64,000 nt of DNA from a virus (Duplodnaviria; Caudoviricetes). The stretch lies in IMG/VR virus record IMGVR_UViG_3300032116_000002; one strand, 5' to 3'. The position numbers and the translations under genes were made by a program. Positions within the stretch are counted from its first letter, which is position 1. The number at the start of each line of letters is the position of its first letter. The notes under the pieces are model-generated. The model ran no database searches, was not told the origin of the DNA, and saw only the letters and a program-made list of their open reading frames with translations. Of the stretch, positions 11,387-43,340 are shown in pieces.

Positions 11387-11823
11387 TATTCTTTCATAGG
11401 TGTAAAAAATGCGGTCTTAATTTTTTCAGGTGTCCATGACTTTAAGTAGTCATTGTCACTATAACAAAGTTTGACTGCTTCTTCCTCTGAAATAACACGA
11501 TGACTAGATATTGTCTCGCCCAAATGTAGTTGACTGAATTCTTTTGCTTCTTCCATAGTTACAGTATCAAGTGCCCATTCTGCTTTACCAATTGGTACTT
11601 CTATACAGTATCTATGCCTGAACATTTGAACAGTTTCAACCAAGACCCACTCTGTATTTACACTTTTTTCAATTTTTGAGAGGATTACGGTTCCGTCTTC
11701 TTCAATGTCCCATTTAAGTTCATCACCCTCTTTCCAGTTAAGGTCTTGGATCATTTGATCAGGGAGCTGAACAACGGCGTCACCATCTTCGTTTGTAAAT
11801 ACTTCAAGTTGTCCGAATTTCAT
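11386..11823 (-). CDS. AbrB/MazE-like DNA-binding domain protein
   Basis: N-terminal DAVVQLPDQMIQDLNWKEGDELKWDIEEDGTVILSK. Confidence 0.65.
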   Translation of the reverse strand: MKFGQLEVFTNEDGDAVVQLPDQMIQDLNWKEGDELKWDIEEDGTVILSKIEKSVNTEWVLVETVQMFRHRYCIEVPIGKAEWALDTVTMEEAKEFSQLHLGETISSHRVISEEEAVKLCYSDNDYLKSWTPEKIKTAFFTPMKE

Positions 11824-14427: not shown

Positions 14428-15318
14428 TTAGACTGAACCGTAATTATGTATGGTTTTCATTGATTTTTCTATAAGATAGCTTCTTTCCTTACTGGACCTT
14501 GCACCAAGTATGACCACATTGAAAAGTTTATTTTCTGAGTTTACTAGCATTGTTATACAAAATCCAGCAGCGTTTGTAAAGCCTGTTTTGATAGTCACTA
14601 TGCCCTCTTTACCGAACATAGTACTTGTAGGTCTAGCACGAATTTTATAAGTTTTCTTGCCCTTCGTTGCAGTTACGGTTACGTTTTCCATACTTGCTGC
14701 TTCACGAAAGATTGTATAATAACTCGCTGCTTTAGTGAGTTGAGTTATGTCTGTCAGTGTACTTCTATTATTGGCGTCAAGCCCAGTTGGTTCATAAAAA
14801 ACTGTATTGTGCATGCCGAGTTCTCTAGCATTCTTATTCATCTCATATATGAATGCGTCGAACCCGCCTGGATAATTTTGTGCCAATGTCATTGCTGCCA
14901 AATTATCACTATGTACTAAACTTAGTTTAACTAAATCTATTCTGGTAAGTTGCATACCTTTAGATAATCTAGTATGATTACCTAAACTACTTTGCACTGT
15001 GATAACTTCATTTAGATTTTGATTATTTTTAACTACAGTGTATACCGTCATTAATTTACTAATGCTGGCAATACTTGATCTGGCATAATTATCTTGGTTA
15101 CCTTGTACAATAGAATTATCAGTTAGGTTAACTAATAATACATTTGCGGTAGTGTTGATGTACTTTGGCTGTTGCAATTTTGGTTTGCGTTTTGCCTTTT
15201 TGTACACAGATTTATGCACATATTGCTTTTTCTTTACTGGCTTGCGAACTTCTTTCGCATCGATAGCCGTACTAAAAGCCAATAATAGTGTTGTTAATAT
15301 TAAAAAAATCTTCTTCAT
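14428..15318 (-). CDS. Peptidase S11 penicillin-binding protein (PBP7/PbpG-like D,D-endo/carboxypeptidase)
   Basis: Signal peptide, basic linker, SIASISK (SxxK), HSDN (SxN), KTG; no C-terminal PBP5 domain. Confidence 0.9.
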   Translation of the reverse strand: MKKIFLILTTLLLAFSTAIDAKEVRKPVKKKQYVHKSVYKKAKRKPKLQQPKYINTTANVLLVNLTDNSIVQGNQDNYARSSIASISKLMTVYTVVKNNQNLNEVITVQSSLGNHTRLSKGMQLTRIDLVKLSLVHSDNLAAMTLAQNYPGGFDAFIYEMNKNARELGMHNTVFYEPTGLDANNRSTLTDITQLTKAASYYTIFREAASMENVTVTATKGKKTYKIRARPTSTMFGKEGIVTIKTGFTNAAGFCITMLVNSENKLFNVVILGARSSKERSYLIEKSMKTIHNYGSV

Positions 15319-15571: not shown

Positions 15572-16279
15572 GTGATTAACTTTACAAAGCCCGTTCATTT
15601 ATATTTTACCCGTGAAGAAGATTTAGAAGAACTATGCACAACAGAAGAACTCATACAGAAGATTGATTCTATGTCTCGACAAGTAATCATGTGTACCAGC
15701 TGGTCAGAATTACCTGATAAGCTAAAACTTAATCCACTGTCTATTTGTTTTAACTATAGAGAACTAGCACACAGTTCAGCAATGGAAATAGTAAACATGG
15801 TTAAAACAATGAGCAAATTAGTTAATTTGCCCTACGAAATAAAACTATCTGTTGATGTTGGAAAAGACACCCCCTACAACACAATTAAATTATTACAAAA
15901 AAGTGATATTTTAGGAATAATACCTCGTCCTTCTGACTTTGGTTGGGATGAGTGCTTGAAAGGTGCGAATGCTTTATGGTCAAACATCCCTTACTGGCCT
16001 AAACACATACTTGAAAAATTGCCAGGTAATAAGTTAAAAAATACAAATTTACAAGCGGTCTCAAATCATATTAAATTGACAGCTCGACAACAACAAATTT
16101 ATTCGTTAGTTTCAACAAGAGGCGCAAGCAATAAAGTTATTGCTAAAACCCTAAACATCAGTGAAAGCACAGTTAAGCTTCATGTAAGTGCAATACTCAA
16201 AAAATACGGTGTTCGTAATCGTACACAATTAGCAGTATTTGCAGGTAATCATGGACTAGTAAAAGCTAGACTTCAGTAG
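15572..16279 (+). CDS. LuxR/NarL-type HTH transcriptional regulator
   Basis: C-terminal LTARQQQI..GASNKVIAKTLNISESTVKLHVSAILKKYGVRNRTQL; N-terminal region is a degenerate receiver-like domain. Confidence 0.85.
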   Translation: MINFTKPVHLYFTREEDLEELCTTEELIQKIDSMSRQVIMCTSWSELPDKLKLNPLSICFNYRELAHSSAMEIVNMVKTMSKLVNLPYEIKLSVDVGKDTPYNTIKLLQKSDILGIIPRPSDFGWDECLKGANALWSNIPYWPKHILEKLPGNKLKNTNLQAVSNHIKLTARQQQIYSLVSTRGASNKVIAKTLNISESTVKLHVSAILKKYGVRNRTQLAVFAGNHGLVKARLQ

Positions 16280-23306: not shown

Positions 23307-23397
23307 TGGCGGAAGCGGACGGAGTCGAACCCTCAAGGGCCTATTAAGCCTCAACTGTTTTCAAGACAGGTACCATCGCCAATTGGTTTGCGCTTCC
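23307..23397 (-). tRNA. tRNA-Ser(UGA)
   Basis: Acceptor GGAAGCG/CGCTTCC, loop CTTGAAA, long variable arm, CCA. Confidence 0.92.
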
Positions 23398-24296: not shown

Positions 24297-26207
24297 TTAA
24301 TTAGTTTCTTTTACTTCTGCGTCTACTACATTAGGATCACCTTCTGCTTTTTGTGCGTTTGGATCACCTTCTGGCATTTCTTTATTGCGCTTTTCTGCTT
24401 CATATGTAATAGTTTTGCGATATAGTTCACCGAGTTCTTCAGTGGCTTTGTCCATATCTTCTTTACTATCACCTTTAGCAACTTCTTTGTATTTACTAAT
24501 ACTATCAAGCATTGAAGTTTTTTCTTCTTCAGGAATATAGCCTTCAAGATTTTCAATTTGCTTTTCAAGCATACCAATTTGATTATCCAAACTGTTACGT
24601 GCTTGTACAAGTTCTACAACCTTTTTATCTTCCTCAGCATTTAACTCAGCGTCTTTGACCATTTGTTCAATTTCTTGTTCAGATAATCCAGAACTTGCTT
24701 TGATAGTAATTTGCTTTTCTTTGTTAGTTTTCTTGTCAAGAGCCTTAACTGATAGTATACCATTTGCGTCAATGTCAAATGTTACTTCAATCTGTGGCAT
24801 GCCTCTTGGTGCAGGATCAATGCCCTCTAGTGTAAACTCACCTAGTCCTTTGTTACCTACAACAATTTCACGTTCACCTTGGAAAACTTTAATTGTAACA
24901 GCAGGCTGATTATCGTCTGCTGTACTAAAAGTTTGGCTTGCCTTTGTAGGAATCGTTGTATTCTTTTTGATAAGTTTAGTCATAACACCACCTAGTGTTT
25001 CAATACCTAAACTTAAAGGTGTAACATCCAACAACAGAACATCAGTGCGATCACCACCTAAGACTTGACCTTGAAGTGCAGCACCAACTGCAACTGCTTC
25101 ATCAGGGTTTACATCTTTACGAGGTGCCTTACCAAAAAACTTTTCTACTGCTTCTTGTACTCTTGGCATGCGAGTCATACCACCAACAAGAATCACTTCA
25201 TCAATATCACTGATACTTACACCAGCGTCTTTGATTGCAACTTCACAAGGCTTAATGCTACGTTGAATTAACTCTTCAACCAAACCTTCTAATTTAGCAC
25301 GTGTGATTTTAACGTTAAGATGCTTTGGTCCTGTTGCATCAGCAGTGATATAAGGTAAGCTTACATCAGTCTGTGTTGAACTTGATAGTTCAATCTTAGC
25401 ACGTTCTGCTGCATCTTTAAGTCTTTGTAATGCTAATACATCTTTAGTTAAATCTACACCACTTTCTTTTTTGAACTCATCAACTAGATGATCCATAATT
25501 CTTTGGTCAAAATCTTCACCACCTAAAAATGTATCACCGTTAGTTGATAATACTTCAAATTGTTTTTCACCTTCGACATTAGCAATATCAATAATACTAA
25601 TGTCAAATGTTCCACCACCTAAGTCATAGACAGCAATTTTTCGGTCCTTCTTGTCCTGTTTGTCTACACCGTAAGCTAATGCTGCCGCTGTAGGTTCGTT
25701 AATAATACGCAATACTTCCAGACCCGCAATGCGTCCTGCGTCTTTAGTTGCTTGTCTTTGACTATCATTAAAATATGCTGGAACTGTAATAACAGCCTTT
25801 GTGACTTCTTCACCTAAGAAATCTTCTGCTGTCTTTTTCATTTTACGCAAAACTTCAGCACTGATTTGTGGAGGTGCTAGTTTCTTGTCATTCACTTCTA
25901 CCCAAGCATCACCGTTATCTGCTTCTACAATCTTATATGGCATTAGATCGATATCTTTTTGGACTGCTTGTTCTTTGAATTTGCGCCCAATCAATCTCTT
26001 TGATGCATACACCGTGTTCTTTGGATTAGTAACAGCTTGACGCTTAGCTGGCGCGCCAACAACGATTTCACCGTCCTGCATGTAGGCGATAATGCTTGGG
26101 GTAGTTCTTGCACCCTCGCTGTTCTCTAATACTTTTGGATTTTTGCCATCTATGATAGCAACGCATGAATTGGTAGTACCTAGGTCAATACCTATAATCT
26201 TTGACAT
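24297..26207 (-). CDS. dnaK: Hsp70 chaperone DnaK
   Basis: [35 protein letters not shown], full length 636 aa. Confidence 0.98.
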
Positions 26208-26628: not shown

Positions 26629-26704
26629 TGGTGCCGCCTGTTGGTTACGCTCCAACCTATCCGGCTCTTCAAACCGGCGCTTTCACTAGATTAGCTTAAG
26701 CGGC
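26629..26704 (-). tRNA. tRNA-Phe(GAA), atypical T-loop
   Basis: Loop TTGAAGA; T-loop AGCGTAA; CCA. Confidence 0.85.
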
Positions 26705-26990: not shown

Positions 26991-27092
26991 ATGTAGTGTA
27001 GCGGTTAATCTAGCACACAAGGATGCCAACGTAAAGAGTTTTCTAGATTTCCTCTATACCTAGTCGAAGGCCAAATTGTCGCTACACTACAT
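26991..27092 (+). ncRNA. Candidate small structured RNA E closed by a 13-bp stem
   Basis: ATGTAGTGTAGCG...CGCTACACTACAT directly after TATAAATA (26984-26991); inner AATCTAG/CTAGATT stem. Confidence 0.5.
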
Positions 27093-27665
27093 CACAGGTC
27101 CATTACCATTTTTAAAACCAACAGTACCGCCTTCTTCTACAATACGTTTGATAACTTCTTCAAACAATATAGGGCGATAATCTGTTTGTTCTACACAAAC
27201 ACAATGATATCTTGGGTCGATTTTATATTCACCGAAAATTTCTGCTTTAACTCTCTGATAATGCAGATGTCCATGAATATTAGTACCGAACCTTGCGAGA
27301 CTATCTGTATGAATAGGAATATGACTTAATATCATTCCATTCATTACATGATAGCCACGAATATCTCTAAAGTATTCAGTGTATTCTTCTAATCTAAAAA
27401 TGTCGTGGTTACCCTTAATAAGAACCTTATCTCCATTAAGCCTTGCTAGAGTTTTAAGTGCTTTACGATTAATCACAACATCACCGAGATGGTAAACTTT
27501 ATCGTTTGGACGAACGGTTTCGTTCCAACGTTTTACCATTTCTTCATCCATCTCATCTGGGTCATCCCAGGGTCTGAGTTTAGTTCCATCATCACGAAGG
27601 AACTTACAAACGCCAGCATGACCAAAATGCGTATCAGAAACCAAAAAGTTTGCTGGCATAGTCAC
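27087..27665 (-). CDS. Calcineurin-like metallophosphoesterase
   Basis: SDTHFGH, LGD, GNHD, HGH motifs. Confidence 0.92.
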   Translation of the reverse strand: MTMPANFLVSDTHFGHAGVCKFLRDDGTKLRPWDDPDEMDEEMVKRWNETVRPNDKVYHLGDVVINRKALKTLARLNGDKVLIKGNHDIFRLEEYTEYFRDIRGYHVMNGMILSHIPIHTDSLARFGTNIHGHLHYQRVKAEIFGEYKIDPRYHCVCVEQTDYRPILFEEVIKRIVEEGGTVGFKNGNGPVM

Positions 27666-27680
27666 TCCTTAAATAAAAAA

Positions 27681-27709
27681 ATTATAACACAAAAACAATT
27701 TACTGTCAA
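27681..27709 (-). promoter_or_regulatory. Sigma70-type promoter TTGACA-N17-TATAAT
   Basis: Perfect consensus. Confidence 0.9.
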
Positions 27710-27710
27710 T

Positions 27711-27787
27711 TGGCACCCCAGGAAGGATTCGAACCTCCGACTCCTGCGTTCGTAGCACAGTACTCTAGTCCACTGAGTTACTGGGGC
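27711..27787 (-). tRNA. tRNA-Arg(ACG)
   Basis: Loop CTACGAA, CCA. Confidence 0.95.
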
Positions 27788-27796
27788 ATATATTGA

Positions 27797-27872
27797 TGGT
27801 GGGGGCTATGGGAATCGAACCCATTTAATCTACTATGTCATAGTAGCGACTAGCCATTCATACCTAGCCCCT
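27797..27872 (-). tRNA. Atypical tRNA-Val(GAC)-like element
   Basis: Good T-arm, anticodon stem and CCA, but A1:C72 mismatch, weak D-stem and loop ATGACAT. Confidence 0.55.
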
Positions 27873-27946
27873 CGCCGACCCGGGGTTTCCCTCCTTGCAG
27901 TCGGTGAAGTATTTATTGCCCAACACCATTAAAAATAAATACAAAA

Positions 27947-28648
27947 ATGCATATACATATATTTGGTCACAGCATTTGTGCCAGAGCAGGTTGGAAACAT
28001 GACAAACCCGAACCTGATCTATTTGTTGATAGATTAATTAAAAAATATAATATACCTAAATCAAACTATCACGCTGTTAATCAAGGCAGTGAAGAAAGAA
28101 TATTATATTTTTTAAAAAAAGTTAAAAAGATTGACTTGGCGATAATCTTCCATGGCACTCCGCAACATTTCTTTTGTCCTGCGTGGTCTAGTGATTTTCA
28201 TTTAGTAGACCAAGACAAATATTGGGAAAATGATTACCCCAGAGATTTGTATTACATGCCTGAAATACTAAAAGATAAACCAAAAGAACCTAATCCTGAT
28301 ATAATATTAGATAAGAAAAATTATCAAAAATCATATGAAAATTTTGTAAAACACTTTTATACACCTGAATTAAATCGCAATAGACACTATGGCGCATTAA
28401 TTCAAATTGATCAATATTTAAATCACAAAAAAATACATGCAATTCATTGTGTACTAAAAAACACATTACCAACTTGGTTCGAGTTTAGTAATGGTATAGT
28501 AGACAATGAACTTGCAGAGTTGCAAAAACAAAACAGTAAGTTCTATACCGGACCTCAAAACAGCGGCAATTTAATCAGTGAAGAAGGTAATATCTACATT
28601 GCTAACAAACTTACTGATTACATAGAACAATTAACTGGCTGGGGATGA
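27947..28648 (+). CDS. Hypothetical protein, possibly SGNH-like
   Basis: HIFGHSICA N-terminus; ATAAATA just upstream; 3' end overlaps tRNA-Gln on the opposite strand. Confidence 0.7.
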   Translation: MHIHIFGHSICARAGWKHDKPEPDLFVDRLIKKYNIPKSNYHAVNQGSEERILYFLKKVKKIDLAIIFHGTPQHFFCPAWSSDFHLVDQDKYWENDYPRDLYYMPEILKDKPKEPNPDIILDKKNYQKSYENFVKHFYTPELNRNRHYGALIQIDQYLNHKKIHAIHCVLKNTLPTWFEFSNGIVDNELAELQKQNSKFYTGPQNSGNLISEEGNIYIANKLTDYIEQLTGWG

Positions 28649-28711
28649 TGGACTCGAACCACCGAATGTCGGAATCAAAATCCGATGCCTTACCAACTTG
28701 GCGAATCCCCA
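28636..28711 (-). tRNA. tRNA-Gln(UUG)
   Basis: U1:A72, loop TTTTGAT, CCA. Confidence 0.95.
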
Positions 28712-28880
28712 ATTAACTTGGTATTACTTTTGGTATATACGGTACATTTCTAGGACCATGTCTTTGCTCAAATAACATACGTGCTTCCTGTAAATCTTTA
28801 GCATAGACACGATCTTTAATATCACCTTGCGGTGTTCTTACTGTAGTTTCATACATTGGCATAACAAACTCCTTAGAGGT

Positions 28881-28908
28881 AAGAAAAGGTAGCTAAGCTA
28901 CCCTTTTC
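28881..28908 (-). terminator. Intrinsic terminator after pqqA
   Basis: GAAAAGGGTAGC-TTA-GCTACCTTTTCTT. Confidence 0.75.
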
Positions 28909-28932
28909 ATTATGTTGATTGAAAATCACTGA

Positions 28933-29004
28933 TTAGCGATTTGCAATGTACATAGTGATTTCAAAACCAAAACGCATATCAGTTGCACTAGGTGTTGTCC
29001 ACAT
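28933..29004 (-). CDS. pqqA: PQQ precursor peptide (23 aa, not in ORF track)
   Basis: MWTTPSATDMRFGFEITMYIANR with ExxxY core; SD AAAGGAGAG; own terminator. Confidence 0.92.
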   Translation of the reverse strand: MWTTPSATDMRFGFEITMYIANR

Positions 29005-29212
29005 GTTACTCTCCTTTGAATTTAAAATACATGTACTGCACATGTATTTAAGAGATTGTACAACACAAAAATGGTACTGTCTATACGCATAGTATTGAAC
29101 GATAGCTAGTGAAAATCATTAAACTTACCATATAGAAACACATTCCTGGATTGTCGTAAAACCCTCCATAGCCCCGAGCGCCATTATTTTTATATTCGAA
29201 TGTGTTTTTATA

Positions 29213-29288
29213 TGGTAGGGGCACAGAGATTCGAACTCTGGACACACGGATTAAAAGTCCGCTGCTCTACCTACTGAGCTATACCCCC
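29213..29288 (-). tRNA. tRNA-Lys(UUU)
   Basis: Loop CTTTTAA, CCA. Confidence 0.95.
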
Positions 29289-29583
29289 ATCATCTTTCGA
29301 GGTTTGTCGCTTTCCTTATTCATCTTTATCACCTTTATTTCTCATGCTTCTTGTTTTAGCACTTCTTTCTGAGGATTTGACTGCCTCACGAATGAAATGT
29401 CTTTCACGTTCCTTATTAAAACTAAGGATCGCAATAGCCTTTTCTGCTTTCTTTATTTTTACTGCCTTTGGATCGTAACCCATATTAATCTCCTATTTAA
29501 AATTTCTATCAATTAATGCTAACAACCAAATAACTCCGATAATAACTGCCATTGCCCCATTGTAGTTCTCCTTATAGTTATAT

Positions 29584-29667
29584 TGGTGGGGTGTACTGGG
29601 ATCGAACCAGTCATGTCAAAGACGGCGGATTTACAGTCCACTGCATCACCATTGATGCTTCCACCCC
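29584..29667 (-). tRNA. tRNA-Tyr(GUA)
   Basis: Long variable arm, loop CTGTAAA, CCA. Confidence 0.95.
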
Positions 29668-29669
29668 AT

Positions 29670-29875
29670 TTAATGCTCTGACAGACCTCGGAGGTAATTA
29701 TACCGCATCAAGCACCGAGTAGTCTCAGTACCATCACACACGGCCTCCACCCTCTCCACGACAGGTCCCGTTCTCGCATTGCCAGCGCACTTTCGGTTTA
29801 AAGTGTACCACCCGTAGTTGTCATACTACTTCTCATCGTGCGGGTCACACTATCTGCTGACTAAGCAGAACGTTC
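29670..29875 (-). ncRNA. Candidate structured RNA C (~205 nt) between tRNA-Asp and tRNA-Tyr
   Basis: Nested stems TCTGCT/AGCAGA, ACCCG/CGGGT, GTAGT/ACTAC, CACTTT/AAAGTG, GGAGG/CCTCC, CTGAG/CTCGG. Confidence 0.6.
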
Positions 29876-29952
29876 TGGCGACACCAAGGGGGTTCGAACC
29901 CCTGACCTCCGCCGTGACAGGGCGGCATTCTAACCAGCTGAACTATGGTGCC
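29876..29952 (-). tRNA. tRNA-Asp(GUC)
   Basis: Loop CTGTCAC, G73, CCA. Confidence 0.95.
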
Positions 29953-30103
29953 ATTGTTCTACACTCTGCTACTAACTTACTTTTTACAATTGTTAATCTT
30001 TTATTCCAAACATACTCTGCATCTCTACATTCTTTTTCTGTGGCATACTTTGAGTATTGGGTATAGTTGTCAGGAAACTGTAACCAAAATACTAAAATCC
30101 AAG

Positions 30104-30568
30104 TCATCTCACACCCAAATAATGTTTGTTTACATAGCTTTGTATTGCTTGATGACTTACATTACTGATATGCACGCCTGGAGCAACATTACGCCTACCT
30201 GAACTATCAAAGTAATTTCTTGTTTCTATACCATAGACACCATAGTTAACCTGTGCTGTATGATATGCACCAATTGTAACAATAGAGTAGGGCTTATGTT
30301 TTACGTTTTTTAAAACATGTTTAATGCTTTCTGCACCCTTACTATACCCATATAACTGATACTGTTTATTATTTCTATTAATAAACTTTACTGCTAAATG
30401 TGCTTGATTCCAACTATATGTCATTGCACATGCATTCTGCTTTTTTGCATATTGATTAAAGGCACGACTATCAAATAAATCATTGATACCTTTGAAACCA
30501 ATAACGAACTTGTCACAGGCAAAACTGTTCTGTGTTACAAGTAATAAAATAAAAAATAATGTTCTCAT
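30104..30568 (-). CDS. Exported protein, possible minimal alpha/beta hydrolase
   Basis: Signal peptide; GYSKG nucleophile-elbow-like motif. Confidence 0.6.
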   Translation of the reverse strand: MRTLFFILLLVTQNSFACDKFVIGFKGINDLFDSRAFNQYAKKQNACAMTYSWNQAHLAVKFINRNNKQYQLYGYSKGAESIKHVLKNVKHKPYSIVTIGAYHTAQVNYGVYGIETRNYFDSSGRRNVAPGVHISNVSHQAIQSYVNKHYLGVR

Positions 30569-31118
30569 ATTAGTTTTGTAGCCTATACTATATGCCTAAC
30601 TCAACAGCTTTACACGTGTTTACTGTTTATTGTTTCGGTTACATAACGCCTGCGCCAGCCTCTGTGCTTACAGGCTACAAAATTAATATGCTTAGGCCAC
30701 GCTTTTCCACGGTCGCCCCCAAGCTGGAGTTGTTGCCCTGTCCGAACACTAAAGGACCTTTGCCGCGTAGTGTCCACGCTGCTATGTTGTCTGAAACACC
30801 GGAGACACCACATCGAAATGCAGAGTCTATGTTTCGCTAAAGGTGCCATAGCCACCTGGACTTTATCGTATTACCAAACGCTACTTTCAGGAAAGTAGTA
30901 ACCGGAATCTTGCTTCTTTGATTCGGCGAGCTGTCCTACTTCAAGCAGGCTCACACTGGTCGCCCTGAGGTGAAGCACCTCAGTTACTCTAGATTAATAT
31001 TAATGCTAACAAGGACAGGCCTATTACATGATACCGAAGGCATTACTGTATCAAACCCTTGCTAAACTCTTTTCAGAGACAGAACGCACATTTTCTGTTT
31101 TGTTTTTAATCTTCATTT
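30566..31118 (-). ncRNA. Candidate large structured RNA B (~500 nt)
   Basis: Own sigma70 promoter, elevated GC, many hairpins, no credible long ORF, 17-nt core shared with RNA A. Confidence 0.65.
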
Positions 31119-33943: not shown

Positions 33944-34198
33944 CTACTCAATTACCCATGGCCTAAAAGTTGTGTCTATTTTAATAGGCTTTTTGGGCTT
34001 CTCATGATTATTTATGACAACAACTTCGGGAATTTCATTGTTATAAAGTACAGAAAAACCAGTAAACTGATTGTCCTTAATGTTTGCTGTTATTTTCTGT
34101 ACAGTTTTGCCAGTTTTATCTTCTACGTATTGTTTTAATATACCTTCAACTAGTTCCTTTGTGAGGGTGGAAGTACTCTCAATGACTATATCATCCAT
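33944..34198 (-). CDS. Hypothetical protein
   Basis: SD GGAG. Confidence 0.65.
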   Translation of the reverse strand: MDDIVIESTSTLTKELVEGILKQYVEDKTGKTVQKITANIKDNQFTGFSVLYNNEIPEVVVINNHEKPKKPIKIDTTFRPWVIE

Positions 34199-34222
34199 AT
34201 ATTTCTCCGTTATTAAGTGTAC

Positions 34223-34408
34223 TTATTCGCTAGAAATTTTGCCCCAATTAAATTTCAACCACAGTCTTTCATGTATGTAATGTGCTATGGTCATAAAGAT
34301 GTTTATAACTATTGCTCCACTTAGTCCTGTCCATATTGCAGTAACCAATGTAGCTACGATTCTCCAAGTTATTGCTCTAATGATTGTTCTTTTGTGTGTT
34401 TCTGTCAT
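34223..34408 (-). CDS. DUF2061-like small membrane protein
   Basis: ETHKRTIIRAITWR and YIHERLW motifs. Confidence 0.75.
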   Translation of the reverse strand: MTETHKRTIIRAITWRIVATLVTAIWTGLSGAIVINIFMTIAHYIHERLWLKFNWGKISSE

Positions 34409-34420
34409 TGTATCTCCAAA

Positions 34421-34442
34421 ATAAAAGCCCCTTTCGGGGCTA
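34421..34442 (-). terminator. Intrinsic terminator after ahpD
   Basis: AGCCCC-GAAA-GGGGCT-TTTAT on the minus strand. Confidence 0.85.
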
Positions 34443-34444
34443 TG

Positions 34445-34963
34445 TTAATTACTCAATAACCTTGCTACAGAGGTCATAACCGCTGCTATTCGCCCTATAT
34501 CTCGTAATTGTTCTACTGTATATCCTTCTTTTTTAAGTGTTTCATAATGTGCCTTAACACAAAAATGACACTTACCTACTATACTTGCTGCAAGACTATA
34601 TGCCTCAAATCTTGCTTTGGTTGTACCACCATGCGTTGCAATCGCATTCATACGCAACTGTGCTGGCAAACCTTTTAATTGTTCATCATCTGCCATTTCA
34701 ACATATGGATACCATACATTGTTTTGTGCCATAATACTAGCTGCTGTTAGTGCTGCATCAGCCTCTTTACGATCACTTAATTGGCTGTGAACCCATGTCC
34801 AAAATTTTGAATTGCCAGTTGCAAATGCTGCTGCAAGTGCCACTGCCTCTGCTTCTTCAACTGGTAACGTACTACGTTTAATTACTGCATCTATGTTTAG
34901 TTTTGTATCCTTAGCGTATTCAGGAATACTTTGTTCTTTTAATGCGTCTACCCATGCTGTCAT
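34445..34963 (-). CDS. ahpD: Alkylhydroperoxidase AhpD family protein
   Basis: MAQNNVWY, FEAYSLAASIVGKCHFCVKAH (CxxC); next to ahpC. Confidence 0.9.
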   Translation of the reverse strand: MTAWVDALKEQSIPEYAKDTKLNIDAVIKRSTLPVEEAEAVALAAAFATGNSKFWTWVHSQLSDRKEADAALTAASIMAQNNVWYPYVEMADDEQLKGLPAQLRMNAIATHGGTTKARFEAYSLAASIVGKCHFCVKAHYETLKKEGYTVEQLRDIGRIAAVMTSVARLLSN

Positions 34964-35355
34964 TTTGTTAAAACTCCTAGTTGTCTATATCCTTTATATG
35001 TAGGATGGACCTTATCGGGAGATAGTTCAGGAATAATAATAAAAGTATCACCAAAATGTCTAGCAATTTTTTTAACCAACTCTTGTTTCTCTGGTTTAAT
35101 TGCAGGTACTATCCAAAATACTTGATCTGAATTAACATGAGTTCTTAATGCGACCAATTCTATTTCAGTGTTTAAGTTTTTAAAATCATTACTCCCTAAA
35201 CTAATAATTGTAGTTTTGGCAGGCTTGATTTTTTTAACATATGCATCATTCCAGTCTTTGCTATTGATACCACTCTGAGCATAAGCCACGCACTCAGTAC
35301 GTACTTGGCTTATACCCTTTGCTATGCTATCTCCTAAGATAAGGCACTCTATCAT
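34960..35355 (-). CDS. Minimal SGNH/GDSL hydrolase
   Basis: LGDSIA, SLGSND, DKVHP blocks. Confidence 0.8.
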   Translation of the reverse strand: MIECLILGDSIAKGISQVRTECVAYAQSGINSKDWNDAYVKKIKPAKTTIISLGSNDFKNLNTEIELVALRTHVNSDQVFWIVPAIKPEKQELVKKIARHFGDTFIIIPELSPDKVHPTYKGYRQLGVLTK

Positions 35356-35888
35356 TATAGTGTCTCGCCACCAACTGAACGGTTACATGCACATAATTCA
35401 CCTGTTTGTAGTGCATCTAGTACACGCAATGTTTCTTCTGGGCTACGACCAACATTTAGGTTATTAACAGTAACGTGTTGGATTACATTGTCTGGATCAA
35501 CAATAAATGTTGCACGGAGTGCTGCACCTGCAGGGGCGTAGAAAATGCCAAGCTGATTGATTAAGCTTAGTTCACCGCGCTGTGTATCTGCAAATTGTAC
35601 ATGTGTAATTTTTGCTAGATCAGGGTGTGCTTTCTGCCATGCTAATTTGCAGAATTCATTGTCTGTTGAACCAGTCAATAATACTGCATCACGGTCTTTG
35701 AAATCATTTGCCAACTTATCGTATGCTACGATTTCTGTTGGGCAAACAAATGTGAAATCTTTTGGGTAGTAAACGATAACTTTCCATTTACCTTCAAAAC
35801 TTGTGTCGGTAATGTCAAAAAACTGATCACTACCTGGGTTGACGCCGGTTACGGCAAATTTTTCAATGGTATCACCAACTGTTTTCAT
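35355..35888 (-). CDS. ahpC: 2-Cys peroxiredoxin
   Basis: YPKDFTFVCPTEI and GELCAC. Confidence 0.95.
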   Translation of the reverse strand: MKTVGDTIEKFAVTGVNPGSDQFFDITDTSFEGKWKVIVYYPKDFTFVCPTEIVAYDKLANDFKDRDAVLLTGSTDNEFCKLAWQKAHPDLAKITHVQFADTQRGELSLINQLGIFYAPAGAALRATFIVDPDNVIQHVTVNNLNVGRSPEETLRVLDALQTGELCACNRSVGGETL

Positions 35889-35995: not shown

Positions 35996-37576
35996 ATGAG
36001 TGGATTAGCGTTTAACCCAAATGCATATGATATCGTGTTTTTAAGCTACGATGAACCAAACGCCGACGAAAACTATCAGCATTTACTCTCAATAAAACCC
36101 AAAGCAAAACGTGTGCATTGTGTCAAGGGTAGTGACGCAGCGCATAAAGCCTGTGCGGAGTTAGCTACTACAGATAGAGTTGTAATTGTAGACGGTGATA
36201 ACAAAGTTCTACCATCATTATTCAAACGTAATGTTTGGATAAAGCAAGGATATTTTGACTGGGATGATAAAGTTTTTAGCTATAGTAGTCTAAACTCAAT
36301 CAATGGCACAAGTTATGGAAACGGTGGCGTTAAGTGTTGGCCCGTGGAAAAAATTTTGGCTATGCGAACTCACGAAATCAGTGAGGATGAAAATGTAAGT
36401 GTAGATTTTGATTTTGATAGTTATCTACAATTGAACACTATCGGCAGTCATACTGTCGTTAATAGTAATCCATTACAAGCATGGCGTGCAGGATTCCGTG
36501 ATGCAGTGAAGTTATTCATGAGTGGCAATGGTACGTTTGATGACGTAGATTGGCGCAATATGGATAGATTGTATAGTTGGATGCATATAGGTGCTGATGT
36601 TGAGAATGGATTATGGGCATGTTATGGTGCAAGATTAGGATGCTATTTGATACAGCGTGGTTATGACCATCATGAATTGTGCGATTTTGATAGATTAAAT
36701 GATACATTTAAAATGTATTACGCAGCATCACACAATAACTTAGAAAAGGCATGCAATAATTTATCTATATTGCTTAATCATAGATATGTAGGTAAGGTGT
36801 TCAGTCCTGAACAAAGTATTGAATACAAAGAAAATATTAAACCACCTGTTCGTAGTCCTGAACATTTTGTAGCAGGGAATAAAGATCCTGAGTATGACAT
36901 AGTTTTTATAAGTTATGATGAATCAAATGCTGATGAGAATTATGAAAAATTATTATGTAGGTTTCCTAGAGCAAAAAGAGTACATGGAGTAAAAGGTATA
37001 CACAATGCACACAAAGAGGCTGCATTGTTATGTTCTACTGATTACTTTTGGGTAGTAGATGCAGACGCAGAGATAGTAGATAGTTTTAATTTTGATTATG
37101 TTGTACCTTTCTTTGACTTAGCAAGAGTTAGAGTATGGCGTTGTAAGAATCCTATCAATGATCTTGTATATGGATACGGTGGTGTTAAGTTGTTACCTAG
37201 ATGTTTAGTAAATAAAATGGATGTTAACACTACTGATATGACAAGTAGCATAAGCAAACATTATGAACCAGTGCAAGAGTTAAGCAACATCACAAAATTT
37301 AACACTGATCCATTTACTACATGGCGCAGTGCATTTAGAGAATGTGTTAAGTTAAGTAGTCAAACTATTCAAGGGCAGGTATCACAAGAAACATTAGAAA
37401 GATTAGACATTTGGTGCAGTGTAGGTATAGATAAAGAATATGGCAAGTATGCTATTCAAGGTGCCAAACAAGGTAGAGAATACGGTTTAGAAAACAAAAA
37501 TAATAATGAAGCATTAAGAAAGATTAATGATTATAGTTGGTTAAAAGAATTATATGAAAGAACAGTTAGCGTTTAG
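35996..37576 (+). CDS. Tandem two-domain glycosyltransferase-like protein
   Basis: YDIVF(L/I)SYDExNADENY module occurs twice, each with a DxD-like motif (VDGD, VDAD); TAAATA elements at 35970 and 35985. Confidence 0.65.
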   Translation: MSGLAFNPNAYDIVFLSYDEPNADENYQHLLSIKPKAKRVHCVKGSDAAHKACAELATTDRVVIVDGDNKVLPSLFKRNVWIKQGYFDWDDKVFSYSSLNSINGTSYGNGGVKCWPVEKILAMRTHEISEDENVSVDFDFDSYLQLNTIGSHTVVNSNPLQAWRAGFRDAVKLFMSGNGTFDDVDWRNMDRLYSWMHIGADVENGLWACYGARLGCYLIQRGYDHHELCDFDRLNDTFKMYYAASHNNLEKACNNLSILLNHRYVGKVFSPEQSIEYKENIKPPVRSPEHFVAGNKDPEYDIVFISYDESNADENYEKLLCRFPRAKRVHGVKGIHNAHKEAALLCSTDYFWVVDADAEIVDSFNFDYVVPFFDLARVRVWRCKNPINDLVYGYGGVKLLPRCLVNKMDVNTTDMTSSISKHYEPVQELSNITKFNTDPFTTWRSAFRECVKLSSQTIQGQVSQETLERLDIWCSVGIDKEYGKYAIQGAKQGREYGLENKNNNEALRKINDYSWLKELYERTVSV

Positions 37577-38549
37577 CGATATACCTTTCAATGACATTGT
37601 TAGATTTGGTCAGGCAACTATGCTTGATGACACACTGTTTTCTATAAGTTGGATATTAGGAAGATTTTGTAACTATAAATGCAGTTATTGTTGGCCATAC
37701 GCAAGAAATGATACACCAGATCATCAAGAACTAGAAACATATTTAAAAACAATAGATGAAATAAAAAGACAAGCCAGACAAAATGGCTTCAATAAATTTC
37801 ATTGGTCATTCAGTGGCGGCGAACCAACAGCGTATAAACATTTACTTGAATTAGTAAAGCATGTTGATGATGGACCTGGTACTCCATATCAAAGCATCCA
37901 CATGACTACTAACTTAAGTCCTAGTAGGCGTTGGTGGAAAAATTATGCTGAGATAACTAGCATGTTACAAAGGCGTAGTATCACTGCAAGCTTTCATGAT
38001 GAGTTCGCAAAAGAAATTGAGTTTGGTGATAAGATATTACAATTAACCGAAGATGATGTATTCGTAACTATTAATCAAGTTATGGTTCCGTCAAAGTTTT
38101 ATGAGTTATACGAAAGATTGTGTCGTTTTGCAGCACGTGGAATTAATGTCACACTCAAGCCACAAAGCGATCCTACAGCTAGTTTTGTAGTTGACGGATA
38201 CAGTGAAGATATGATAAAATTAATGCGTGATGGCTTCCCTCAACATGCAAAAAATCAAGAAGTAATGCAAGTAAAACTTATTGATAAAGATAATAAAGTT
38301 TGGTATATGGATCAAGCAGAAAGATTTAATGCGTTTGGTTTCAACAAATTTAAAGATTGGATGTGTAATTCAGGGTATCAAGGTTTAGTTATTAGAGAGA
38401 ATGAAGTAAAACGAAGCTATAGTTGTAGAGATGAAATATTAGGGACATTAGACGGTGGATTTAAATTATTTGATAGTCCTAAAATATGTATCACAGACAG
38501 TTGTGTGAGTTCCGCAGATAGTAAATTACCAAAATGCAAATCGATTTAG
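37554..38549 (+). CDS. Radical SAM protein
   Basis: CNYKCSYC, SGGEPT, C-terminal C..C..CxS Cys cluster. Confidence 0.92.
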   Translation: MKEQLAFSDIPFNDIVRFGQATMLDDTLFSISWILGRFCNYKCSYCWPYARNDTPDHQELETYLKTIDEIKRQARQNGFNKFHWSFSGGEPTAYKHLLELVKHVDDGPGTPYQSIHMTTNLSPSRRWWKNYAEITSMLQRRSITASFHDEFAKEIEFGDKILQLTEDDVFVTINQVMVPSKFYELYERLCRFAARGINVTLKPQSDPTASFVVDGYSEDMIKLMRDGFPQHAKNQEVMQVKLIDKDNKVWYMDQAERFNAFGFNKFKDWMCNSGYQGLVIRENEVKRSYSCRDEILGTLDGGFKLFDSPKICITDSCVSSADSKLPKCKSI

Positions 38550-39124
38550 AACACATATTATTTTGGATGGATGCTATTCGCAATAGCGAAGATCCTAAAC
38601 GCACTTTAGAAAGTTTCTGGAAAGGTCAGATCAAAAGCAAAGCCTGGCTGATAAGAGAAATGGGTGTGTTTATAGGTAAGCCAGTTACTATAGATATATT
38701 TGGTGGCTGGAACGGAGTGCTTGCTAGTATGTTGTTTCATGCTGCATATCCTGTAAAGTCTATTCGTAGTATTGACATTGATCCAAAATGCGAAGAAACT
38801 GCTAATACGATGAATAAGATTGAGCATATGGCGGGTAGATTTGTAGCAGTTACAGAGGATATGTGTGATTCTATTAGTGAGGCAGATGTAGTAATCAATA
38901 CTAGTTGCGAACATATTTCTCAAGACCAGTACAAAAGTTGGCTAAATAGATTACCTGCCAAAAGTTTGATTGTACTGCAAAGTAACAATTACCAAATAGA
39001 TGAGCATGTACGGATAGCTAACACACTAGATGAATTCATTGAACAATCAGAATTAAATGTTTCATTTTCTGGTGAGTTAGAGTTACCATTGTACAAAAGA
39101 TTTATGATTATAGGGAGAAAATAG
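38534..39124 (+). CDS. Class I SAM-dependent methyltransferase-like protein
   Basis: IDIFGGWNG, RSIDIDP, VINTSCEH. Confidence 0.75.
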   Translation: MQIDLEHILFWMDAIRNSEDPKRTLESFWKGQIKSKAWLIREMGVFIGKPVTIDIFGGWNGVLASMLFHAAYPVKSIRSIDIDPKCEETANTMNKIEHMAGRFVAVTEDMCDSISEADVVINTSCEHISQDQYKSWLNRLPAKSLIVLQSNNYQIDEHVRIANTLDEFIEQSELNVSFSGELELPLYKRFMIIGRK

Positions 39125-39657
39125 TGCTAAAAAAGGTTCACTTAGATTTTGACTTTAGTAAACTATTGTCAGCGGATTATACTCAGCACTGCGGTAGCTG
39201 TATTAAACATCAGGTTCATGAATTGAATGATATACATGAGCAATATGGTGGCTTCCCTGAATCATACTCGTTTGAAAATACTAAGATACATCAACTATGG
39301 TGGGATGATACACAAATAGATTATAAAGAATTGGGTGAGAAGTTAGGTATGGAAGTAATCACAGTGAGTACAATCATGCAGCCACCTGGTTGTACTGTGC
39401 CATTACACCGTGATACTTTTTATCAAATCAATACACGTTATCCAGATAGAAAAGAATTAAAAGTTCGTGCAAACATATATCTAGAGGACTATAAAATAGG
39501 TCAATTCATTCAATACCAAGAAAACAATGGCTATACAACTAGTGTAGATTGGGTAACAGGTGATGGCTTCATTTGGGATAGCGAAGTTTTACATTTAAGC
39601 ACCAACGGTGGTATGCAAAACAAATATACAATGCAAGTGTCAGGATTTTTATTGTGA
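39124..39657 (+). CDS. 2OG-Fe(II) oxygenase-like protein
   Basis: PLHRD (HxD) and distal LH; cupin-like pattern. Confidence 0.7.
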   Translation: MLKKVHLDFDFSKLLSADYTQHCGSCIKHQVHELNDIHEQYGGFPESYSFENTKIHQLWWDDTQIDYKELGEKLGMEVITVSTIMQPPGCTVPLHRDTFYQINTRYPDRKELKVRANIYLEDYKIGQFIQYQENNGYTTSVDWVTGDGFIWDSEVLHLSTNGGMQNKYTMQVSGFLL

Positions 39658-40685
39658 GATATCCAAGAAATTATACAAGCATTCACATAGAGTTAACAGA
39701 CAAGTGTCAAGCAAGTTGTCCAATGTGCGCACGTAACTACAATGGTGGTGCTGAAAGACCCTTTGTTGGTCAATCAGAGATTACACTAGAAGATTTTAAA
39801 CGTTGGGTAGATGTTGAGATATTAGAAAATTTATATTATTTTTACGCTTGTGGTAATTACGGAGATCCTATTATCGCTAAAGATTGTTTAGAAATTTTTA
39901 GATATGTTAGGGAAAATAGTGACACACGGTTGAGCATCCATACTAACGGTGGTGCAAGAAATACTAAATGGTGGCATGATTTAGCTGATGCAATGCGTGG
40001 CGATCATGAAGTTACATTTGGAATAGATGGATTTGCAGATAGTCATGTACTATATCGTAGAGGAACTGATTATAATAAAATTATCGACAACGCAAAGGCA
40101 TTTATTGATAACGGTGGATATGCTACAGTAGATACACTTATCTTCAAACACAATGAAGATGAAGCTAAGGCATTCGAAGAAGAAATGCTACGTATAGGAT
40201 TTAAATCTGTAAACTTCAAATCTACCCAACGTTTCTATGATATGGATAAGTTTCCTGTACAGGATACTAAAGGTAACTTAGAATATTATCTTGAACCTCC
40301 AACTAAAGAACCATTTAAAAGGATGAACTTCTTAAAGTTAGAAGATATTAGCAAAGATATTTCTATTTGGGAGAACATCGTTGCTACTACTAACGTTGAT
40401 CCTAAATGTATGAATAAGAATGAAATTTATATTGATAGCAGAGGCAATGTACTGCCCTGTTGTTGGGTAGGTTCAGATATGCTTGAAGAACCGTTAGACG
40501 TAAGTTTAACTATTCATAATCTTAGAAACAAATTAGTAGATAACACAAAAGAACATTTTGGTAAGTTTACAGGTCTTAATTTAAATGACTTGCCATTAGA
40601 TTATATTTTAGAAAGTGAAGCTTGGGCACTATTACATGATAAAGATATTAAGCCATGGATATGTACTAAGAATTGTTCAGCATGA
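39654..40685 (+). CDS. Radical SAM/SPASM-twitch protein
   Basis: CQASCPMC; C-terminal C..GNVLPCCW..CTKNC. Confidence 0.92.
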   Translation: MRYPRNYTSIHIELTDKCQASCPMCARNYNGGAERPFVGQSEITLEDFKRWVDVEILENLYYFYACGNYGDPIIAKDCLEIFRYVRENSDTRLSIHTNGGARNTKWWHDLADAMRGDHEVTFGIDGFADSHVLYRRGTDYNKIIDNAKAFIDNGGYATVDTLIFKHNEDEAKAFEEEMLRIGFKSVNFKSTQRFYDMDKFPVQDTKGNLEYYLEPPTKEPFKRMNFLKLEDISKDISIWENIVATTNVDPKCMNKNEIYIDSRGNVLPCCWVGSDMLEEPLDVSLTIHNLRNKLVDNTKEHFGKFTGLNLNDLPLDYILESEAWALLHDKDIKPWICTKNCSA

Positions 40686-41935
40686 TTAATTTATTCTACG
40701 ACAATTTAATTACAGGAAATGGTTCAAGTGAAATTGATAATCCAGTTCGCCCCACAATTAGCATTACACACCATTTAACTCAGTTGGGCGTAGAATTCAC
40801 AACTCATCAAATCAATTCAGAAACCAAACTAGACCACAATCAAACTAATTTATACGTTATTGAATTAATGTATGGGAATAAGATTGATGAGATATTTAAA
40901 AATTTAAGTGAGCAGGCACTAACATTTTTACGCAATGACATAAAGCTATTAGTTTATTTTCCATATGAGGGTTTTGAACTCAAATTATACGAAAATTGGT
41001 TTTATAAATTACACAAAGGGTTTATAAACCATAATATCACTTGCAAAAAATACTTTGTATTTAATAACTTGTATATGGAAGACCATTACAAGCATTTTTT
41101 ATTAGAAAATACGATAGGTGAACAGTTTCAATTCAACAACGTGTTCGGGTTCCCCTATTTTCAATTCGAATACTATCACACAGTAAAAGAACAAGTTGAA
41201 GAAGGACTTCCACAAGTTAAAGTAGAAAACCTTTTTAACAAAGATAAAGATTATTTGTGCTTAAATTCTAAAATAAGAGCCCATAGAGTGTTTTTAGTAA
41301 GTGAGTTGGAACGTAGAGAAATAGAAAAAAATTGTTATCTAAGTATGATGGGTAGCACATTTAAGTACGACGAAACTACAATAGAATTTGCCAAAAATGT
41401 ATTATCGCAATACATGAAAAACTCCGAGATGGTTAGTCAACCAATGATTGATGGGGTGCGTAAATACGTTGATGATTGGAAAGAACGACTTTTAGATAGT
41501 GATGCTAATAACTTAAACGACAGAGTATTAGATCCAAAATACTATGAGTCAAGTTTCTTCAGTATAGTAAGCGAAACTGGAATGAGTCATCATTTAAGAT
41601 TGACTGAAAAGCCATTCAGAGCGATAGTAAACTATCACCCATATATTATTGTGGGATGTAACGGTACTTTAGAATATCTAAAGTCATTAGGTTTTGAAAC
41701 TTTCCCTGAATTGTTTGATGAAAGTTATGATAATGAACCAGATATGGCTAAACGATTATTAATGGTAATTAATGAGGTAGAAAAGTTTGTCAATCTTACA
41801 TTCGACGAAAAAATGTCGAGATATAGAATGGTACACGATAAAGTATTACACAACAGAGAAGTATTTTTTAATAAAGTCGCAGTTGATACTATTAATGACT
41901 TTAAAAAGATTTTTGAGTATATAAAAAATGACTGA
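40673..41935 (+). CDS. Hypothetical protein, possibly glycosyltransferase-like
   Basis: IVSET...LTEKPF...LGFETF C-terminal motif; family not certain. Confidence 0.55.
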   Translation: MFSMINLFYDNLITGNGSSEIDNPVRPTISITHHLTQLGVEFTTHQINSETKLDHNQTNLYVIELMYGNKIDEIFKNLSEQALTFLRNDIKLLVYFPYEGFELKLYENWFYKLHKGFINHNITCKKYFVFNNLYMEDHYKHFLLENTIGEQFQFNNVFGFPYFQFEYYHTVKEQVEEGLPQVKVENLFNKDKDYLCLNSKIRAHRVFLVSELERREIEKNCYLSMMGSTFKYDETTIEFAKNVLSQYMKNSEMVSQPMIDGVRKYVDDWKERLLDSDANNLNDRVLDPKYYESSFFSIVSETGMSHHLRLTEKPFRAIVNYHPYIIVGCNGTLEYLKSLGFETFPELFDESYDNEPDMAKRLLMVINEVEKFVNLTFDEKMSRYRMVHDKVLHNREVFFNKVAVDTINDFKKIFEYIKND

Positions 41936-43340
41936 ACAATTTTGGAAAACACACAACAGCCCTAAACTGGCTGAACTACAGACAAACATAGAGCAACTAG
42001 CCGGTACAGATACATTCTGTGTATTACCTTGGATACACTTTGCTACTAGACCAAATGGCGATATGAGATTATGCTGCTCTGCTAATGCAAGCGGTGCAGG
42101 ACTAGATCATACAGTTGGATTAGTAAAAAACGAAACAGGAAAGCCTGCTAACTTTGGTAAAGAAACTCCATTAAGTGCATGGAACAATGACTACATGAAA
42201 AGTGTACGCACAACTATGCTACGGAATGAAATACCTAGTAGTTGCAGTAAGTGCTTTGAAGAAGAAGGTAAAGGTGTAGTCAGTAAGCGTATGTGGGAAA
42301 GCAACACATGGATGGCTGATGGTTTAGATATACCTGAACTCGTAAGACAAACACAAGAAGATGGCACTATACCTGACAAACTTGTTTACTTAGACTTGCG
42401 TTTAGGTCATACGTGTAATCTTAAATGTATTATGTGTAGCCCACATGATAGTAGTAAATGGGTACAAGATTACAAAAAAGTGTTTCCTATACTACAAAGT
42501 GAGGTAGTTAAATCACAAATTGCATGGGAGCAATCAGAGTTTAATAATCAATGGTATGAGAATCCATCGTTCTGGGAACAGATGTTTGAGCAGATTCCTA
42601 ATCTCAAACAAGTGTACTTTGCAGGTGGTGAACCACTAATGATCAAAGAACACAAAATGTTTTTAGAAGAAATCATACGCAGAGGATATGCTGATAAGAT
42701 ATTAATTCGTTACAACAGTAATGGATTGTTATTAGATCAGGATACAATTGATTTATGGAAACAGTTTAAGAAAGTTAAATTCGCAGTAAGTATTGATGAC
42801 ATTGGAGATAGAAATTACTTCATACGTTATCCAGCAGATTGGGCCACACTTGAAAAGAACATGCACATTCTAGATCAGACACCTAGCAACATTCATGTGA
42901 GTATCGCAACTGCTATTCAAATACTTAATATTAAAACGTTACCTGAACTAGCAAAGTGGAAGATTAATCAAGGATTCAAAAAGATTAATTTAGAAAATGT
43001 ATACGACGGTGTACAAGCAGGTGGCGGTATATTCAATATGCATTTGCTCTATATACCAACATTCTTAAGTTGTAGACTATTGCCTGAAGAAGATAAACGT
43101 GAAGTTCGTAAGATATACGGTGAGTTTGCTACATGGCTACATGAGAATTATAGACAAGATGAAGATTTTTGGAAGATAAATCCATATGGCTGGAAGCGTT
43201 GGCAAGCTATACTAGACTTTATGGATGCAGAAGATCATACGCATTTATTACCAGACTTTAAAGAATACATTCACAAAATGGATAATATTCGTGGCACTGA
43301 CTTTAAACAAATATTCCCTGGATTAGCACACTTACTATGA
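41928..43340 (+). CDS. Radical SAM protein with N-terminal twitch-like domain
   Basis: FCVLPW..CC..CSKC, then CNLKCIMC and FAGGEP. Confidence 0.92.
   Translation: MTEQFWKTHNSPKLAELQTNIEQLAGTDTFCVLPWIHFATRPNGDMRLCCSANASGAGLDHTVGLVKNETGKPANFGKETPLSAWNNDYMKSVRTTMLRNEIPSSCSKCFEEEGKGVVSKRMWESNTWMADGLDIPELVRQTQEDGTIPDKLVYLDLRLGHTCNLKCIMCSPHDSSKWVQDYKKVFPILQSEVVKSQIAWEQSEFNNQWYENPSFWEQMFEQIPNLKQVYFAGGEPLMIKEHKMFLEEIIRRGYADKILIRYNSNGLLLDQDTIDLWKQFKKVKFAVSIDDIGDRNYFIRYPADWATLEKNMHILDQTPSNIHVSIATAIQILNIKTLPELAKWKINQGFKKINLENVYDGVQAGGGIFNMHLLYIPTFLSCRLLPEEDKREVRKIYGEFATWLHENYRQDEDFWKINPYGWKRWQAILDFMDAEDHTHLLPDFKEYIHKMDNIRGTDFKQIFPGLAHLL

Follow-up and report, generated by a model that had tools for sequence, protein, structure and literature searches.

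The window, by which we mean the whole 64-kb stretch of phage DNA that was analysed, carries on its minus strand a pqqA gene of 23 codons plus TAA (29004 down to 28933), which encodes the peptide MWTTPSATDMRFGFEITMYIANR. A preliminary description of this DNA had pointed to the 72-nt open reading frame and taken it for a genuine PqqA, and both claims were borne out. Searched with the PqqA family models, MWTTPSATDMRFGFEITMYIANR scored 41.3 bits against PF08042 (E 1.5e-10, cut-off 21.1) and 40.7 bits against TIGR02107 (cut-off 20), about twice the cut-offs, and it aligned to the whole length of both models. The Glu-X3-Tyr pair is read from the 23-residue peptide (the family ranges from 20 to 40 residues) as E15-I-T-M-Y19; it is established pathway knowledge that these two residues of PqqA, here Glu15 and Tyr19, are cross-linked by PqqE (PMC7678222, PMC9851590). 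A longer reading of 36 codons would begin at an ATG (29043) that lies within a hairpin and is not preceded by a ribosome site, and for these reasons the 23-codon form was taken as the gene. The strong Shine-Dalgarno sequence that had been claimed is found in AAAGGAGAG (29009-29017, minus strand), where AAGGAG at 29016-29011 stands 6 nt ahead of the ATG. Purine-rich ribosome sites of the AGGA/GGAG type also precede nearly all of the viral pqqA copies listed (at least 120, described below), and the pattern used to find those copies was free of that requirement. The pqqA of the window is real, well formed and conserved, and to judge from its sequence it is almost certainly functional; its family membership suggests that MWTTPSATDMRFGFEITMYIANR is a PQQ precursor, bound by PqqD and cross-linked by PqqE.

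The gene lies between those of tRNA-Gln (28636-28711) and tRNA-Lys (29213-29288), both on the minus strand, in an array of 24 tRNA genes according to ARAGORN or 27 according to Rfam, all of them in this orientation. Three tRNA-like genes were reported by Rfam only and not by ARAGORN (23310-23397, 26632-26704 and 27800-27872, minus strand). The setting of a pqqA in the tRNA array of a giant phage is new here. The DNA around it is bona fide phage DNA: the window encodes a tail-fibre protein, HNH endonucleases, ribonucleotide reductase and DnaK in addition to the tRNA array, and the neighbouring genes recur in IMG/VR relatives of 148-166 kb. The GC content is uniform across the pqqA site, and of the sampled words of 27000-31000, 87-97% are present in 14 DNA runs from freshwater or lakes, which come from at least 11 studies. 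Directly past the pqqA terminator is a 49-codon ORF with a strong ribosome site (28713-28862, minus strand), for which no family match was obtained and whose homologue in the relatives accompanies tRNA-Gln, not pqqA. Several other genes of the window, all on the minus strand, are recorded here as well. An intact isocitrate lyase of 401 residues (58563-59768, 349 bits) is encoded between the genes of two ribonucleotide reductase subunits, and the phage DnaK/Hsp70 is full-length (24297-26207, 851 bits), with 70-72% identity to DnaK of betaproteobacteria. At 34445-35888 an AhpC/TSA peroxiredoxin (177 residues) and an AhpD-like protein of the carboxymuconolactone decarboxylase family (172 residues) are encoded about 390 bp apart, with a 131-residue ORF between them, in what looks like a phage-borne peroxide defence pair. 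There are also a D-alanyl-D-alanine carboxypeptidase gene (14428-15318; S11, 122 bits) and a small ORF of the MazE/AbrB DNA-binding type (11386-11823).

The preliminary description had assigned pqqA its own terminator, and this agrees with the intrinsic terminator at 28878-28906 (minus strand), in which a 10-bp stem with a GGGUAGC/GCUACCU core (28884-28906) is followed by the U-rich tail UUUUCUU (-11.6 kcal/mol). A GC-rich hairpin with a T run closes every related cassette. On the upstream side, the inverted repeat AAATACATGT-N5-ACATGTATTT, also noticed earlier, spans 29025-29049 (minus strand) and indeed folds as a hairpin with an 11-bp stem (-9.0 kcal/mol, z -3.6). It begins approximately at the predicted transcript start, and relatives have an ACATAC...GTATGT stem at the matching place. 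This 5′ hairpin may act as an mRNA stabiliser, as a processing site or as an operator. An Rfam search of the leader and the hairpins matched no family.

Between the 5′ hairpin and the pqqA box described below lies a promoter candidate of the sigma-70 type, TAGACA-17-TACAAT (29055-29083, minus strand), with 10 of 12 consensus matches. By eye, and uncounted, most of the related cassettes and of the Methylotenera pqqA genes displayed have a TACAAT- or TATAAT-like box at the corresponding position. We regard the site as a candidate, because promoter-like sites as a class are not enriched here over shuffles and because a metatranscriptome contig from this locus starts upstream of it. The preliminary description had pointed instead to a late-type TAAATA. 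The hexamer is there, at 29050-29045, but its designation as a late promoter was not supported: the position is not conserved in the related cassettes, and the T4-type late octamer TATAAATA, expected at about -10, is absent from the pqqA site, which reads CTTAAATA. In the window as a whole the octamer occurs 4 times against 10.9 expected, and TAAATA occurs 69 times against about 133 expected from shuffles. Since TAAATA is underrepresented in the window but slightly enriched ahead of genes, it may yet serve the phage as a signal at other sites. At pqqA, the host-type TAGACA-17-TACAAT appears to be the better candidate, since its -10-like box recurs in most of the relatives shown and the host operator is conserved, whereas TAAATA is not.

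This putative operator, which we call the pqqA box, is the 17-bp sequence TTAATGATTTTCACTAG at 29106-29122 (minus strand), an imperfect copy of the palindrome CT(C/A)ATGA-N3-TCAT(G/T)AG of host pqqA upstream regions. It lies about 118 nt upstream of the pqqA start, with its centre about 64 nt ahead of the predicted start of transcription, and it fits the form CTnATGA-N3-TCAnnAG at about 100-145 nt from the start codon. On a matrix trained only on host sites it obtained 17.2 bits, while viral control windows reach 9.7 bits at their 99th percentile; this percentile is exceeded also by 28 of 115 other viral cassettes, among the matches listed. In the hosts, the palindrome is found 100-145 nt upstream of pqqA in 44 of 117 upstream regions of the Methylophilaceae/Methylophaga type and in 29 of 110 of Burkholderiales, compared with fewer than one in shuffled sequences. 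Its association with pqqA is tight: within 1.9 Mb of host loci, 45 of the 46 strict palindromes are at most 260 nt upstream of pqqA, and the 46th is about 150 nt upstream of a pqqA which the search pattern missed. Five Methylophilaceae genomes have 11 full palindromes, ten of them 100-130 nt upstream of a pqqA copy. The eleventh (Methylophilus rhizosphaerae, contig 10, 54729-54745), which no pattern-detected pqqA adjoins, may point to a divergent pqqA or to a further regulon member. The retention of the host pqqA operator box by a phage cassette is new here.

The box gives an RNA fold of 0 kcal/mol, so we take it to be a DNA site. Two other identities were considered for it. A repeated phage regulatory element was ruled out, as the window has 2 loose matches to the box against 4.8 expected. 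The ATGA-N3-TCAT core bears what we take to be a resemblance to the Escherichia coli Fur box; the reading as a global iron (Fur) box was dropped given the ten of 11 full palindromes that stand upstream of pqqA in the five genomes. In the literature we found no link between pqqA and Fur and no described palindrome of pqqA promoters. In DNA of up to 8 kb around pqqA, a homologue of HisKA_3 kinases is encoded at 41 Burkholderiales and 12 Methylophilaceae-type loci, and ORFs with a GerE domain are found at 24 loci. The phage itself encodes a LuxR-family protein of 235 residues (15572-16279, plus strand) with a C-terminal GerE helix-turn-helix (55 bits); its N-terminal 165 residues had no family match. 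This protein was rejected as the binder of the box: its helix-turn-helix domain shares only 31-37% identity with the host regulators encoded next to pqqA, and in the comparison, for which one genome with a contig was matched, the pqqA-adjacent regulator ranked third, not first.

Four IMG/VR loci share neighbouring genes with the window at 65-80% identity by blastn (L003/L052, 166 kb; L034 and L060, 148 kb), and at this nucleotide identity they have pqqA intact. The related giant phages are estimated at about 345-356 kb. Arrays of 24-28 tRNAs adjoin pqqA in L003, L052 and L034. The L003 cassette sits at the edge of the array and is inverted relative to the conserved flanks, which argues that the cassette moved as a block; that it has moved and flipped among related giant phages is another new observation. 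In comparison with 12 similar viral copies, these four relatives included, pS was 0.45-0.77 and pN 0.04-0.20 (pN/pS about 0.06-0.34), and with the four relatives 0.46-0.63 and 0.06-0.09, respectively (pN/pS about 0.1-0.2), ratios which are biased low, since the pattern by which the copies were selected already dictates 11 of 22 codons. At the nucleotide level the whole cassette is closest to viral cassettes, with 78-84% identity, and not to bacterial sequences. The peptide subtype MWT(T/K)P-x3-DMRFGFEITMYIANR was found in no species-representative bacterial genome, and a subtype that, with these genomes as the bacterial side, would be confined to viral contigs is also new here.

Because the nearest cassettes are viral and the subtype is absent from the species-representative bacterial genomes, the capture of the cassette appears to be old. 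A contig chimeric with host DNA at this point, which the preliminary description had named as fatal to its reading, was rejected: the nearest cassettes are viral, and the flanks are phage tRNA-array DNA with even GC. The cassette does resemble the host orphan pqqA unit, host operator box included, and this resemblance would fit a neutral passenger, captured recently from a host and with no role in the phage, or an assembly chimera. We consider either of these most improbable. Beyond the viral nearest matches, the virus-only subtype and the phage DNA on both flanks, the relatives at 65-80% nucleotide identity retain an intact copy, neither decayed copies nor long reads that break at the cassette edges were seen, synonymous change is far above non-synonymous change, and the stretch is present in many independent metagenomes.

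The preliminary description had also stated that pqqA stands alone, with no pqqB-E in the window, and our searches agree with it. Using tblastn with a reference set of pqqBCDE (the verified canonical set of an Albidiferax locus) and profiles of PqqB, C, D and E derived from 57-114 host proteins, we found none of these genes in the window or in the available parts of 120 viral loci; 15-bit matches to the PqqE profile only are noise at the level of radical SAM proteins. Four large records of related viruses (166, 148, 72 and 356 kb, the last estimated to be 96% complete) have exactly one pqqA each and no PqqB, C, D or E over the cut-off, and it is from these relatives that the absence is extended to DNA outside the 64-kb window. 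The gene does not occupy the canonical position directly upstream of pqqBCDE, which is not a defining feature of PqqA. In the hosts, pqqB was found within the available DNA (up to 8 kb) at 25 of 120 loci of the Methylophilaceae/Methylophaga type versus 104 of 120 loci of Burkholderiales.

Two functions had been proposed earlier for such a gene, precursor supply to the host pathway and a role as substrate or decoy for the radical SAM enzymes of the phage. By the second, the phage would make a cross-linked peptide or cofactor of its own without host PqqE. A cluster of six radical SAM ORFs is indeed present in the window (37554-46536, 8.5-17 kb from pqqA), two of them of the N-terminal-twitch kind (NF033640, 325-400 bits), and the related giant phages that bear pqqA have 5-8 N_Twi_rSAM paralogues each. 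However, no radical SAM ORF comes near the PqqE cut-off (about 15-23 bits against 381), a PqqD-type peptide-binding domain was not found in the window or in the relatives, and the distance between pqqA and the radical SAM genes varies among relatives from about 8 kb to more than 100 kb. Moreover, one N_Twi_rSAM of the window, used as a query, returned four GenBank phage records, none of which is a pqqA-bearing Methylophilales phage, and the peptide is host-like at every conserved residue. This part of the earlier proposal was not supported, and we give it very little credence. There is a similarly slight chance that the peptide serves also, or instead, as a substrate of the phage N_Twi_rSAM family or, in a milder variant, that the phage LuxR-family protein (15572-16279) drives the pqqA box on phage and host copies alike; if the peptide were such a substrate, a giant phage would produce a cross-linked peptide or quinone cofactor independently of PqqE of the host. 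Precursor supply to the host pathway is the part of the proposal that is best supported.

RNA data give a weak hint that the pqqA cassette is expressed. An exact 160-nt contig covers 28997-29156 in one metatranscriptome, there is low depth over 28742-29143 in another, and two RNA runs from two studies contain 0.46 and 0.33 of the words of the cassette (the latter is run X18). These data are assembled contigs, from which strand and ends cannot be read and in which DNA carry-over is possible; most of the RNA cover in four runs comes from tRNA-like contigs of other organisms, and the uncovered stretches are uninformative. As the 160-nt contig begins upstream of the predicted promoter, it would fit read-through from the tRNA array. 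At 30618-31000, where there is no long ORF, metatranscriptome contigs from three studies pile up, with a summed depth of about 1100 in one run, a pattern that fits an abundant non-coding RNA.

Scanning IMG/VR with the pattern W-x2-P-x3-(D/E)-x-R-x-G-F-E-(V/I)-T-x-Y as degenerate DNA revealed intact pqqA in at least 120 viral contigs. An in-frame ATG 0-3 codons before the Trp and a stop 3-6 codons after the Tyr, neither of which the pattern required, were present in all 120 matches listed, and most of the viral peptides among these matches are identical to host peptides of Methylophilaceae. Twelve GenBank phage records with pqqA were found by tblastn, nine of them named as Methylophilales or Methylophilaceae phages (P19250A, Venkman, MEP301, MEP401/402 and four Melnitz records). 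Their copies are mostly unannotated. The gene is indeed below standard ORF cut-offs, as had been remarked earlier. A viral PqqA and a viral methanol dehydrogenase of Lake Baikal were published in 2020 (Coutinho et al., Microbiome 8:163; PMC7678222), and pqqA, pqqD and pqqE figure among the virus-encoded genes listed in a paper of 2026 (PMC13188868). Viral pqqA is widespread and has been known since 2020, and the copy in the window is a good new example of it, not a discovery. One of the viral contigs, IMGVR_UViG_3300025120_009955, encodes a PQQ-dependent alcohol/methanol dehydrogenase (34049-35731; 628 residues, 608 bits) and, 6 kb apart, a pqqA (41890-41943).

These occurrences bear on the idea of interference, in which the peptide would flood or block host PqqD/E, or the box would titrate a host regulator, and PQQ synthesis of the host would be shut down or redirected. 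With replication of the phage to high copy, box and peptide alike would be multiplied, and the peptide subtype is seen only in viral contigs. Yet the peptide has lost none of the family-conserved positions, the Glu-X3-Tyr pair included, and most phage copies, among the matches listed, are identical to host peptides. The PQQ-dependent dehydrogenase on one viral contig and the Lake Baikal viruses (PMC7678222) point to a need for more PQQ, not less, and we judge interference to be highly unlikely.

The host is probably a freshwater betaproteobacterium and most likely Methylophilaceae-like, the latter being a soft assignment. Among bacteria, the MWT(T/K)P start of the peptide and the TCACTAG variant of the box were seen only in loci of the Methylophilaceae/Methylophaga type; the C-terminal 14 residues exactly match peptides from Comamonadaceae, Limnobacter and Thauera. 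The phage DnaK (about 68-72% identity to all candidate hosts) and the phage isocitrate lyase (62-68% identity to AceA of Actinomycetes, Burkholderiales and other diverse bacteria) were uninformative for host inference, their identity being similar to all candidates. A pqqBCDE set is present in all the candidate clades that have the closest peptides and box.

The best explanation for these features seems to be that the cassette in the window is a self-contained copy of the orphan pqqA transcription unit of methylotrophic Betaproteobacteria. From the sequence comparisons we consider it likely that its pqqA is an auxiliary metabolic gene of the phage, supplying precursor to PqqD, PqqE, PqqB and PqqC of the host. 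During infection, host RNA polymerase would transcribe the unit from TAGACA-17-TACAAT, probably assisted by a host factor that binds the pqqA box, perhaps a response regulator of the NarL/LuxR type. Read-through of the tRNA array is the other possible source of the transcript, and the short mRNA may owe stability to the 5′ hairpin. The peptide would then be bound by host PqqD and cross-linked by host PqqE, and PqqF/B/C would finish PQQ. The extra precursor should sustain PQQ-dependent methanol or alcohol dehydrogenase, and hence the energy supply, as host transcription declines. It should be of help because one PqqA is consumed per PQQ and because Methylophilaceae keep 3-12 pqqA copies per genome with a single set of the other pqq genes, pqqBCDE (Beck et al., 2014; PMC4109929).

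If so, the phage would follow a strategy in which only the consumable precursor of a cofactor is supplied and the catalytic enzymes are left to the host, a strategy that would be widespread and almost unannotated and would be relevant to the carbon flow via methanol-oxidising bacteria of lakes and oceans. The retained pqqA box provides a concrete, testable link between the expression of a phage gene and the regulation of PQQ in the host, and the case illustrates that genes of 23 codons are routinely overlooked in phage annotation.

Among the systems described so far, VP_266 of Lake Baikal (PMC7678222) resembles the window in having a stand-alone pqqA in an uncultured freshwater phage, with the other pqq genes missing from the virus, and there too the gene was read as an auxiliary metabolic gene for PQQ-dependent methanol oxidation. 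Unlike in VP_266, the pqqA of the window is located in the tRNA array of a giant phage, has a host operator box and belongs to a subtype seen only in viral contigs; and unlike the Lake Baikal viruses, the window has no viral methanol dehydrogenase. The Methylophilales phages (P19250A, Venkman, MEP301, MEP401/402, Melnitz) also have a stand-alone pqqA, with peptides 65-74% identical to that of the window, but they are phages of 35-142 kb with marine or lake hosts of the OM43/LD28 type, whereas the window belongs to a much larger freshwater lineage. With the orphan pqqA genes of Methylophilaceae the window shares the palindromic box, the promoter, a short leader, a length of 23-24 codons, the terminator and the N-terminal MWT(T/K)P. 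It differs from them in the C-terminal half, where DMRFGFEITMYIANR is of the Comamonadaceae/Limnobacter/Thauera type and not EVTMYVMNK, in its imperfectly palindromic box and in being carried by a phage. Promoter-stem-loop cassettes of T4-type phages were reportedly described by Arbiol, Comeau and Krisch in 2010. Like these cassettes and phage 'morons', the window has an autonomous unit of promoter, hairpin, ORF and terminator in a plastic region with many tRNAs and homing endonucleases, and the unit has been moved and inverted among relatives. Unlike in the T4-type cassettes, its promoter region seems to derive from the control region of a host gene and not from a repeated phage element.
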